From Halogeometricum borinquense DSM 11551 (lineage in GTDB: Archaea > Halobacteriota > Halobacteria > Halobacteriales > Haloferacaceae), in NCBI RefSeq assembly GCF_000172995.2, contig NC_014729.1, positions 1,500,001-1,532,000 of the forward strand: a stretch of 32,000 bases of DNA, written 5' to 3'. The position numbers were made by a program, and so were the translations under genes. A model generated the notes under the pieces. The model had not been told where the DNA came from. It did not search any database and saw only the letters and a program-made list of their open reading frames with translations. The first letter of the stretch is position 1; the number at the start of each line of letters is the position of its first letter. Positions 12,564 to 13,942 of the stretch are shown here, piece after piece.

Positions 12564-13942
12564 AGCGCGTCAACACCTTCGAGGTCGTGCCACAGACCGA
12601 GAACGACAAAGAGTGCCTTCTACGGCTACTCGACGCCTCCGCCTCGCTGTGGAACGAACTGACCTACGAACGTCGTCAGAACTACTTCGGTAACGGCGAC
12701 GTGTGGGACACCTCCGAGTACCGTGGACAGTACAACGGTGTCGTTGGAAGCGCGACCGTTCAACAGGTCACGCGCAAGAACAGCGAAGCGTGGCGGTCGT
12801 TCTTCGCCCTCAAAGAGAAAGGCGAGTACGCCAACCCACCGTCGTACTGGGGCAACGAGGAGGACGGGCGCGAACTCCGCACCTACATTCGGTGCAACCA
12901 GTACACGATTGAGTGGGGGAAGCGTAGCCGTCTCGAAATCCCTGTTGGGCAAGAACTGAAAGACGAATACGGACTCGGCTACCACGAACGACTCCGCCTC
13001 GAAGTCCGAGGCAACCCGAAGTGGGACGGCAAACAGGGTCGTCTGGAACTTGAGTACGACGAAATGAGCGACACGTTCAGGGCTTTCCAACCAGTCACCG
13101 TCCCTGATTCTCGACTGGATTCACGGAAAATCGAAGATTTTCCTGAAGTCGAAAACGCTTCGCGTTTTCGGAATTCACCACTGGCTTCGGAAGAAGCCGC
13201 CCTCGACGTTGGCGCGAACAATCTCGTCGCCTGTTCCACGACCACTGGGAACCTGTACCTCTACGACGGTCGGGAGTTGTTCGGACGGTTCCGCGAGACG
13301 ACAGACGAAATCGCCCGCCTACAGTCGAAATTGCCCGAGAGACGCAGTCTCTCGGAATCACGGAAGACTTCGTCTTCCGGACGACTCCGCGAAGGACGCT
13401 ACTCCTCGAAACGGATTCGACGGCTGTACCGACAGCGGACGAAGCGCCGTGACCACGCACAGAACGCGCTGGTGCGCGACCTCGTTGAACGGCTGTACGA
13501 CGAGGGAGTGGCGACGGTGTACGTGGGCGATTTGACCGACGTGCTGGAAACGCACTGGTCGGTCAGGGTGAACGAGAAGACGCACAACTTCTGGGCGTTC
13601 AAGAAGTTCATCCACCGTCTCGCGTGCGTCTGTGAGGAATACGGTATCAGCCTCGAAGCCGAGTCGGAAGCGTGGACGAGTCAGACGTGTCCCGAGTGTG
13701 GCGACCACGAGGAGACGGTCCGCCACGGAGATACGCTGACGTGTTCATGCGGATTCGAGGGACACGCCGACCTCACGGCGTCAGAGACGTTCCTTCGAGA
13801 AAACAGCGATACGGAAGTCAGGCCGATGGCACGGCCCGTGCGATTCGAGTGGGACGACCACGACTGGTCGGGGAAACCACACCCTCACGAAAGTCCCAAA
13901 GAAGTGCGCACAAACCCGCAAGTTGCCTCCGTGGGTCGGTAG
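12560..13942 (+). CDS. tnpB: TnpB (IS605 OrfB / IS1341-type RNA-guided endonuclease)
   Basis: RuvC-I region [10 protein letters not shown], zinc finger CPECG...CSCG, Ruv[15 protein letters not shown]. The C-terminal [12 protein letters not shown]...[10 protein letters not shown] is typical of haloarchaeal TnpB, as far as I recall. Confidence 0.9.
13125..13170 (+). repeat. twin-hairpin module 2, inside tnpB
   Basis: GGAAAATC-GAA-GATTTTCC (13125-13143), a 6-nt spacer, then CGAAAACGC-TTC-GCGTTTTCG (13150-13170). Perfect stems. Flanked by GATTCAC (13118-13124) and GAATTCAC (13171-13178). Confidence 0.85.
13335..13379 (+). repeat. twin-hairpin module 3, inside tnpB
   Basis: CCGAGAGAC-GCA-GTCTCTCGG (13335-13355), a 5-nt spacer, then CGGAAGAC-TTC-GTCTTCCG (13361-13379). 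Perfect stems. Confidence 0.85.

Follow-up and report, generated by a model that had tools for sequence, protein, structure and literature searches.

A 54-nt twin-hairpin module in a haloarchaeal tnpB, a probable copy of a very small mobile repeat

We have analysed a 32,000-nt stretch of the chromosome of Halogeometricum borinquense DSM 11551 (contig NC_014729.1, positions 1,500,001 to 1,532,000; hereafter the window, from whose first letter coordinates are counted), in which an insertion sequence (IS) of the IS200/IS605 type carries in its tnpB gene a 54-nt module of two perfect hairpins, here called M3. From comparison with related sequences, we consider it quite likely that M3 is one copy of a mobile repeat, very small and non-autonomous, and that it reached tnpB by insertion.

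The M3 module as a segment of tnpB

M3 lies in frame in tnpB at 13331..13384 of the plus strand and has the sequence TTGCC-CGAGAGAC-GCA-GTCTCTCG-GAATCA-CGGAAGAC-TTC-GTCTTCCG-GACGA, which adds 18 residues to the protein. Its limits are set by a 54-nt gap in ISHhu1 and other empty copies and by the 5+19+6+19+5 layout of the family described below, with an ambiguity of 1 nt that makes 13330-13383 also possible. The initial annotation of this DNA had recognised a 54-nt in-frame module but had placed it at 13334-13387. Size and frame stand, while the block defined at the DNA level is 3 nt further to the left, the offset arising because there is a Leu codon on each side of it. The same annotation had compared the module with TnpBs reading ...RLQSKLREGR... 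and had taken it for an insertion of 18 codons that keeps the frame, and both protein and DNA bear this out. TnpBs of 424/425 amino acids (P0006, P0008-P0012; 92-96% identical) read ARLQSK-LREGRY and have 18 residues fewer than the window TnpB in the protein alignment, the closest of all homologs being 94-96% identical and 424 amino acids long, and the DNA alignment with ISHhu1 opens a clean 54-nt gap opposite M3. By length, the TnpB homologs form classes of about 424, 438-443 and 457-460 amino acids, and in-frame modules explain the haloarchaeal TnpB classes of 424, about 442 and about 460 amino acids. In an AlphaFold model of TnpB of moderate quality (mean pLDDT 60), used only for placing M3 between two helices, the module is predicted to sit in a low-confidence linker between helices 240-256 and 273-314. 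In our judgement M3 is probably an insertion, being neither an ancestral segment of tnpB nor locally made. An archaeal bulge-helix-bulge intron was also considered and was rejected by inspection, as the flanks form no helix.

A scan for perfect hairpins re-found in tnpB the two stems previously noted, 5 nt apart, and both were also present in the DNA fold. The first, CCGAGAGAC-GCA-GTCTCTCGG (13335..13355), is a perfect 9-bp stem with the loop GCA, and the second, CGGAAGAC-TTC-GTCTTCCG (13361..13379), a perfect 8-bp stem with the loop TTC, or GAA on the other strand. When M3 is folded as single-stranded DNA the twin hairpin forms on either strand with a z score of about -3. With a minimum perfect stem of 7 bp and a loop of 3 nt, the window yields 8 hairpins, of which 7 lie within 11987-13379; tnpA and tnpB together hold 6, the number with 7-9-bp stems that the initial annotation had counted in the IS, and two more are in the left end of the IS. 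That annotation had proposed codon shuffling as a control for chance, and chance is refuted by it: synonymous-codon shuffles of tnpA and tnpB gave a mean of 0.23 hairpins and codon permutations a mean of 0.14, and none of 2000 reached the observed 6, the maximum being 3. In random Markov-1 windows the expectation was 3.7 hairpins for stems of 7 bp or longer, of which the window has 8, and 1.0 for those of 8 bp or longer, of which it has 6. The signal is therefore the clustering inside the IS and not the window total. All four modules that we recognise (M0-M3) are found in one 2-kb IS and none in the remaining 30 kb of the window.

A dispersed family of 54-nt elements in Halobacteria

On the identity of the module the initial annotation was silent. 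M3 is a member of a dispersed family of 54-nt repeats that is not specific to the IS. A BLAST search of plasmids with M3 returned copies in tnpB together with four intergenic copies (L004-L007), around which tblastn found no tnpA or tnpB; Rfam at gathering thresholds gave no match in the window or in these four copies. A degenerate pattern fitting both the tnpB and the intergenic copies was then scanned over a genome collection and was matched at no fewer than 120 loci, all of them, among the matches listed, in Halobacteria. Among the same matches, 124 instances share the consensus TCGTT-CGAGAGAC-GAA-GTCTCTCG-TGATCA-CGAAAATC-TCC-GATTTTCG-AACGA, or in degenerate form TCGTY-CGAGAGAC-NNN-GTCTCTCG-TGATCA-CGAAAATC-NNN-GATTTTCG-RACGA, which has the 5+19+6+19+5 layout with inverted termini and a palindromic centre. 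The pattern misses most inverted copies, and the apparent presence of copies in both orientations at one site (L024, L074, L106) was dismissed, these being single elements of which both hairpins fit the pattern. A search of viral contigs found no copy. Clustering of hosts by shared 9-mers merged too many loci and was not used.

The flanks of each copy were joined and searched in the fetched loci, and many empty counterparts were found. In 13 filled/empty pairs inspected, the difference was in nearly all cases exactly 54 nt, inserted between G and C with zero target duplication (for example ...AAG^CCCC..., ...CTG^CCTC... and ...GAG^CGAT...). The base at -1 is G in 94% of distinct flanks and is the sole conserved position of the 5' flank; the C at +1 is imposed by the search pattern, yet it is present in the empty sites. 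Most copies outside transposons are intergenic or at gene ends. Most of the long open reading frames (ORFs) that span other copies look spurious in GC-rich DNA, and the clear in-frame cases are those in tnpB (4 loci and the plasmid copies) and in tnpA (5 loci). At L042 (about 2440-2500, minus strand) a canonical copy directly follows a tRNA-like 3' end, GGTTCGAATCCCACC, a possible tRNA-adjacent insertion.

The hairpins are well conserved as structures. The first is perfect in 107 of the 124 copies, though the pattern does not require it. Among 67 distinct sequences, a set prefiltered at 7 of 8 bp or better per stem, 99% of cells are paired and 146 cells are changed on both sides; 0 of 500 shuffles matched this covariation count, and sliding the partners abolished the signal. 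Positions 2 and 26 form a pair that occurs as C-G (42), G-C (20) or T-A (4). Since this pair covaries, each half of 27 nt forms a closed unit of its own, a stem-loop consisting of a T-CGTY tag, a perfect 8-bp stem, a 3-nt loop and a short tail, and two such units placed tail to tail make up the element. The consensus termini, TCGTTCG...CGAACGA, pair in columns 1-5 with 50-54 in 87% of cells, and the left end of M3, TTGCC, has diverged from the consensus terminus. The commonest loops are GAA/TTC, GGA/TCC and GCA/TGC, that is, G-N-A closed by C·G on one or other strand, which is the most stable DNA mini-hairpin. GNA/TNC loops make up 283 of the 522 perfect hairpins of the fetched DNA against 12.5% expected. 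The loops are hypervariable, and otherwise identical copies differ in them, often as reverse complements. Perfect arms and reverse-complemented loops would also fit fold-back synthesis, so that the hairpins might have been made on the spot by template switching during replication (fold-back copying), if they are not a chance cluster. We give either notion almost no credence, since near-identical copies at unrelated loci in many genera exclude a local origin, and the codon shuffles (0/2000) exclude chance.

The M3 peptide recurs at this position in more distant TnpBs (P0024, P0031, P0034; only about 71% identity), and M3 itself retains 47-52/54 identity across three tnpB lineages that are 69-73% identical outside the modules, its identity not scaling with host divergence. 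Outside the two loops it varies at little more than position 1, position 50 and one stem position next to a loop. The carrier L135 has an M3-free sister, L136, that is 86% identical to it. Judging from these alignments, M3 is younger than its host tnpB. It could be argued instead that the 18 codons are ancestral in TnpB and have been precisely deleted many times in relatives, given that palindromes are deletion-prone, that the 6-nt direct repeat bordering the neighbouring module M2 could mediate precise loss and that presence across the family is patchy. This is very improbable, since the repeat flanking M3 is at most 1 nt, module identity (87-96%) is far above that of the host and does not follow it, at least 120 occurrences of the sequence family lie outside tnpB, with empty sites to match, and the non-tnpB copies show no tnpB similarity.

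When the consensus is read in frame 0 it encodes SFERRSLS*SRKSPIFER, while M3 is stop-free in the same frame. Its central GAA replaces the TGA of the consensus, and, in keeping with the altered position 26, position 2 has gone from C to T, giving a T-A pair. Both TTGCC and GAATCA are common to all tnpB copies, including that in a 70%-identical host, and the M3 lineage reads as a derived, reading-frame-compatible variant. Its arrival at the same codon in divergent tnpBs could reflect either site-specific insertion or short-patch gene conversion. In the second case there would have been one transposition into a tnpB, after which the stop-free M3 was copied between IS copies by homologous recombination or short-patch gene conversion via the conserved flanks CAGTCGAA and CTCCG. 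The derived TTGCC and GAATCA suggest such a single origin, L135 matches distant carriers and not its M3-free sister at 3 sites within about 12 nt of the junction, and the flanks to the right of M2 are 81% identical against a gene average of 71%. However, L008 is without the shared flank sites, its flanks being 64% identical and its module 47/54, and the conserved flanks, of about 8 nt only, offer recombination a very short stretch. Moreover, modules resembling M1 of the window tnpA are found at a homologous K^Y in tnpA families only 35% identical, where recombination is not plausible. We therefore hold spread by gene conversion to be possible rather than probable.

Companion modules and host sites in IS200/IS605 elements

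The window is haloarchaeal-type DNA of 60% G+C. The IS, a relative of ISHhu1, occupies 11949..13993 of the plus strand as defined by alignment with L001/L002 and L137, its left end being tentative. At the right end (...GGATGTCAA) homology ends after TCAA at 13993. Its DNA is 86-90% identical to haloarchaeal plasmid copies, among them ISHhu1 of Halobacterium hubeiense. On the plus strand, tnpA (12132..12563, 143 amino acids) encodes a Y1 transposase (Pfam Y1_Tnp) and is the host of M1, and tnpB (12560..13942, 460 amino acids), identified by Pfam OrfB_IS605 and Cas12f1-like TNB matches and by its homologs, is the host of M2 and M3. The right end has a subterminal imperfect hairpin of the TnpA type, CCTCGCGC-TTTA-GCGCGGGG (13964..13983, plus strand), which was read from the sequence, is conserved in L001, L002 and L137 and is free of any module. 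The imperfect hairpin of the left end, CCTCGCCC-TTCA-GGGCGGGG (11968-11983), likewise has a 4-nt loop. A 508-amino-acid ORF (10504-12030) with a Thr/Ser-rich tail and no Pfam match extends into the left end, and a minus-strand ORF (13818-14162) that begins with a CPACG zinc-ribbon-like motif extends into the right end; each of the two may be a flanking gene of which the insertion of the IS has altered the end.

M0 (11984..12034, plus strand), a 51-nt twin hairpin of the CCAGAACGC type, lies in the 3' arm of the left-end subterminal hairpin, as seen from a 51-nt gap in L001/L002 and from the fold. It consists of ACCAGAACGC-TAA-GCGTTCTGGT and a degraded CAGAC-GTA-GTCTG, and it pushes the last GGGG of the hairpin arm to 12035-12038. 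Its unit type also forms the inner elements of four-hairpin arrays at other loci, and L060, from Haloarcula pellucida, has in its left-end hairpin, at roughly the position of M0, another twin hairpin that differs from M0 and is 53 nt long. M1 (12194..12244, plus strand), a 51-nt twin hairpin delimited by a 51-nt gap in L001/L002, directly follows ...FVPK in tnpA. L060, L130 and further copies also contain M1, its stems showing compensatory changes, and in L130/L060 its first hairpin shows stepwise compensation from GCGGAATC/GATTCCGC through one mismatch to GCGGGACC/GGTCCCGC. M2 (13119..13172, plus strand), a 54-nt twin hairpin in tnpB (GGAAAATC-GAA-GATTTTCC and CGAAAACGC-TTC-GCGTTTTCG), is opposed by a 54-nt gap in ISHhu1 and Hfx. 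gibbonsii and is bordered by the 6-nt direct repeat ATTCAC. Its identity is 53/54 and 54/54 between tnpB hosts 71% and 82% identical, its copy in L137 has a compensated stem, GGAAACTC/GAGTTTCC, and a search of plasmids with M2 gave no match. Across copies of the IS family the combinations of M0-M3 form a mosaic, and M0- and M1-like copies at other loci adjoin tnpB or tnpA remnants. At L137 (2520-2544, the P0001 locus) a perfect 11-bp hairpin, ATCAGAACTGC-TTG, near the 3' end of a tnpA whose product has 146 and not 126 amino acids may be a further module at a new site. The tnpA region of L003 from Salinigranum marinum contains a perfect hairpin, CCGAATCGC-TGT-GCGATTCGG (2155-2175), and is also split by an IS5 insertion.

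The compensatory changes could mean that the twin hairpins are retained for a function in place, for example as a brake on tnpA/tnpB translation or transcription or as a host defence that cripples IS605-type elements. In the M1 copies of L130/L060 and the M2 copy of L137 the stems are kept perfect despite amino-acid changes, M0 splits a left-end hairpin needed by TnpA, and an M1-like module at L063 ends in an in-frame TAG; in addition, a defence role has been proposed for SMR-A, a short repeat of Haloquadratum walsbyi (PMC3119063). We think such a function unlikely, since the same 54-mer is found in many unrelated and mostly intergenic flanks which no single local function fits, and the strand-symmetric structure, with loops that flip between strands, points to DNA and not to mRNA. 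Module-bearing copies at three loci, and three IS ends with identical elements in one metagenome-assembled genome (MAG), indicate that mobility is not obviously stopped, and repair within the folded strand could keep the stems perfect without selection. The modules might disable the IS, for M0 splits the left-end hairpin and there are stops in some of them, yet IS copies with modules are found at three different loci (the window, L137 and L060). The presence of P0001 on "45 contigs" was discarded as a sign of proliferation of a module-bearing IS, since this is one locus sampled in many metagenomes. The 54-mer also lets one ask whether such elements restrain or ride IS200/IS605-TnpB transposons.

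Other members of the family are likewise found in IS200/IS605-type hosts. In-frame copies in tnpB are present in L060, L113, L120 and L130 as well as in plasmid copies, and five canonical copies (L017, L054, L086, L099, L103) lie in frame at one site in another tnpA family, the corresponding site of L063 being empty. An IS200-type tnpA family co-occurs with the element at about 9 of the at least 120 loci, as a target and not as a flanked gene. The commonest host is a hairpin, CCTCGGGG-TCAAG^CCCCGAGG, about 24 nt from a conserved terminus (...CCGCCTGTAGA) just past a tnpA of that other family, and this host has the architecture of an IS200/IS605 right end. The insert in it measures 0, 54-56 or 105-108 nt. 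Arrays of 3, 4 and 6 hairpins exist, and in the four-hairpin cases a CCAGA-type (M0-type) element is nested in the centre of a canonical one. The longest array seen, at L068 of Halorubrum alkaliphilum (about 5230-5400), has six consecutive perfect 9-10-bp triloop hairpins in about 162 nt. The idea that insertion is always into palindromes proved only partly true: a flank-to-flank helix of at least 6 bp is found in 18% of copies against 4% of re-paired controls, and the empty M3 site is unstructured.

L063 (1575-1640 and 1983-2095) combines several of these features. Its IS200-type tnpA, about 35% identical to that of the window, has at the homologous K^Y a 51-nt twin hairpin of the M1 kind, the last codon of which is an in-frame TAG, and downstream of tnpA a canonical 54-mer occupies the subterminal hairpin. 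About 60 nt further is a second right-end-like hairpin, CCGCGCCC-TTTA-GGGCGCGG...GGATGTCAC, which suggests nested IS ends. In the MAG QS_4_66_20, three IS-end host copies (L020, L038, L071) have differing outer flanks and 54-mers identical including the loops, suggesting that the host was multiplied together with its passenger.

Proposed movement and comparison with known elements

Transposition of IS200/IS605 elements as single strands by Y1 enzymes has been demonstrated. We propose that the hairpins of the 54-mer similarly serve its DNA-level life cycle rather than TnpB function, and that the element probably moves as a folded single strand, which a structure-specific enzyme of the Y1/HUH type, supplied in trans, would cut and rejoin beside the tag. 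Movement of this kind would explain why targets are not duplicated, why GNA triloops occur on either strand and why the preferred transposons are ones that themselves move through single-stranded DNA. In TnpB the 18 residues would be tolerated in the inter-helix linker, the module then travelling with the IS. We would go further only tentatively, to a Halobacteria-wide class of ultra-small transposable DNA built of 27-nt tagged units in 54-, 81-, 108- and up to 162-nt arrays. Such elements would be hyperparasites of IS200/IS605-TnpB transposons, moved as folded single-stranded DNA by the IS Y1 or another HUH enzyme, with M3 and M1 sub-lineages that are frame-compatible and site-specific at conserved tnpB/tnpA codons. 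TnpB positions after amino acids 187 and 257, plus one in TnpA, carry 17-18 residues in otherwise intact frames, and such tolerated insertion positions could guide the engineering of TnpB RNA-guided nucleases.

Several points weigh against M3 being a copy of a mobile repeat, or against the route proposed for it. The evidence is entirely comparative, and the single-strand, HUH-type step is one that we infer. The empty M3 target in tnpB is not palindromic (z +1.2), so that hairpin targeting does not account for the M3 site. The perfect hairpins with 3-nt loops are unlike the imperfect 4-nt-loop hairpins expected for the TnpA of this IS, and the cut sites adjoin the tag, unlike those of IS608. 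The three flanking sites that L135 shares with distant carriers mean that short-patch gene conversion could have spread M3. Because hairpin 2, the right end and the orientation are all fixed in the search pattern, the sample of the family is a biased one; the covariation set was selected for paired stems and was partly fixed in hairpin 2. Finally, kinship with the SMR repeats, discussed below, is judged by description, since PMC3119063 and its supplements give no sequences.

Several groups of short repeats resemble the 54-mer in part. The cyanobacterial very small dispersed repeats reportedly described by Elhai et al. in 2008 are said to be hairpin units of about 21-27 nt that nest in each other, in mobile elements and in genes. 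Going by their description, they belong to another phylum, differ in sequence and have no reported IS200/IS605 preference. The Rickettsia palindromic elements (RPEs), which are bacterial and about 100-150 bp, lie in frame in many housekeeping genes, where they add a peptide without destroying the protein. The 54-mer is likewise a palindromic selfish repeat in frame in protein genes, but its clear in-frame cases are in transposon genes. RPE-4 and RPE-6 have been equated with CGTC REPs (PMC3733652).

REPs are short palindromic units with an 8-9 bp stem and a tetranucleotide tag that occur mostly as dimers, the CGTC REPs being without a dedicated transposase (Di Nocera et al. 2013, PMC3733652), and Y1/HUH transposases working on the folded single strand are believed to move them (PMC3733652; for REPINs see PMC3116915). 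The 54-mer resembles REPs, BIMEs and REPINs in having a tag next to the stem and a short tail, in forming dimers and in lying sometimes inside palindromes or genes, and with the CGTC-tagged REPs in particular it has in common the apparent lack of a dedicated transposase. However, REPs are reported in bacterial phyla and have loops of 4-5 nt, whereas the 54-mer is haloarchaeal with loops of 3 nt, its dimers are tail-to-tail with the tags outward, and REPs do not show its strong association with IS200/IS605 targets. Among the loci examined, none was identified in which 27-nt units flank a RAYT-like gene, and no genome-wide RAYT search was made. The 54-mer offers a test of whether Y1/HUH transposases move REP-like DNA in archaea.

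PATEs and the ends of IS200/IS605 elements, which are the preferred hosts of the 54-mer, share with it a hairpin-based organisation and the absence of target duplication. PATEs, however, are without inverted termini, the loops of their imperfect subterminal hairpins measure 4-5 nt, and they insert on the 3' side of a constant tetranucleotide, whereas the 54-mer has inverted termini, perfect triloops and G^C insertion, and is thus neither a PATE nor an IS200/IS605 derivative. Nor does it fit a MITE, since there is no target duplication; in the loci examined, which were not searched systematically for this, no transposon sharing its ends was seen.

The closest likeness is to SMR-A and SMR-B (HqIRS40-43, HqIRS55) of Haloquadratum walsbyi, described by Dyall-Smith et al. 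in 2011 as 79-122 bp long, with HqIRS40 at 296 bp (PMC3119063); apart from that report we found nothing in the literature on such 54-nt elements in haloarchaea. The termini of the SMRs are inverted and have no relation to any transposon, the target is not duplicated, and their mobilisation was called enigmatic; palindromes near the ends of IS605-type transposons and PATEs are their favoured sites and have been hit independently at identical positions (PMC3119063). Similarly, the 54-mer is too short for a transposase gene, has inverted terminal repeats (the 87% pairing of columns 1-5 with 50-54) and inserts without target duplication, M3 having at most the 1-nt ambiguity. Its largest host class is the subterminal hairpin of IS ends, and M0 and the L060 element are also in a left-end hairpin, while M3 itself is in an ORF. 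As in the SMRs, there are independent hits at the same position (the M0 site, L060). An H. walsbyi MAG (L101) contains a canonical 54-mer together with an M0-type element; composites of 105-108 nt exist, and none was seen in the Haloquadratum loci examined. The differences are that SMRs are known from one species, whereas the 54-mer (51 nt for M0/M1), built of 27-nt units, is found across Halobacteria and also in frame in tnpA and tnpB. We see in M3 a smaller and much more widespread version of a little-known kind of archaeal mobile repeat, and the puzzle posed by the SMRs now has a tractable form, with a 54-nt consensus, exact boundaries, a G^C junction and filled/empty pairs across cultivable haloarchaea.

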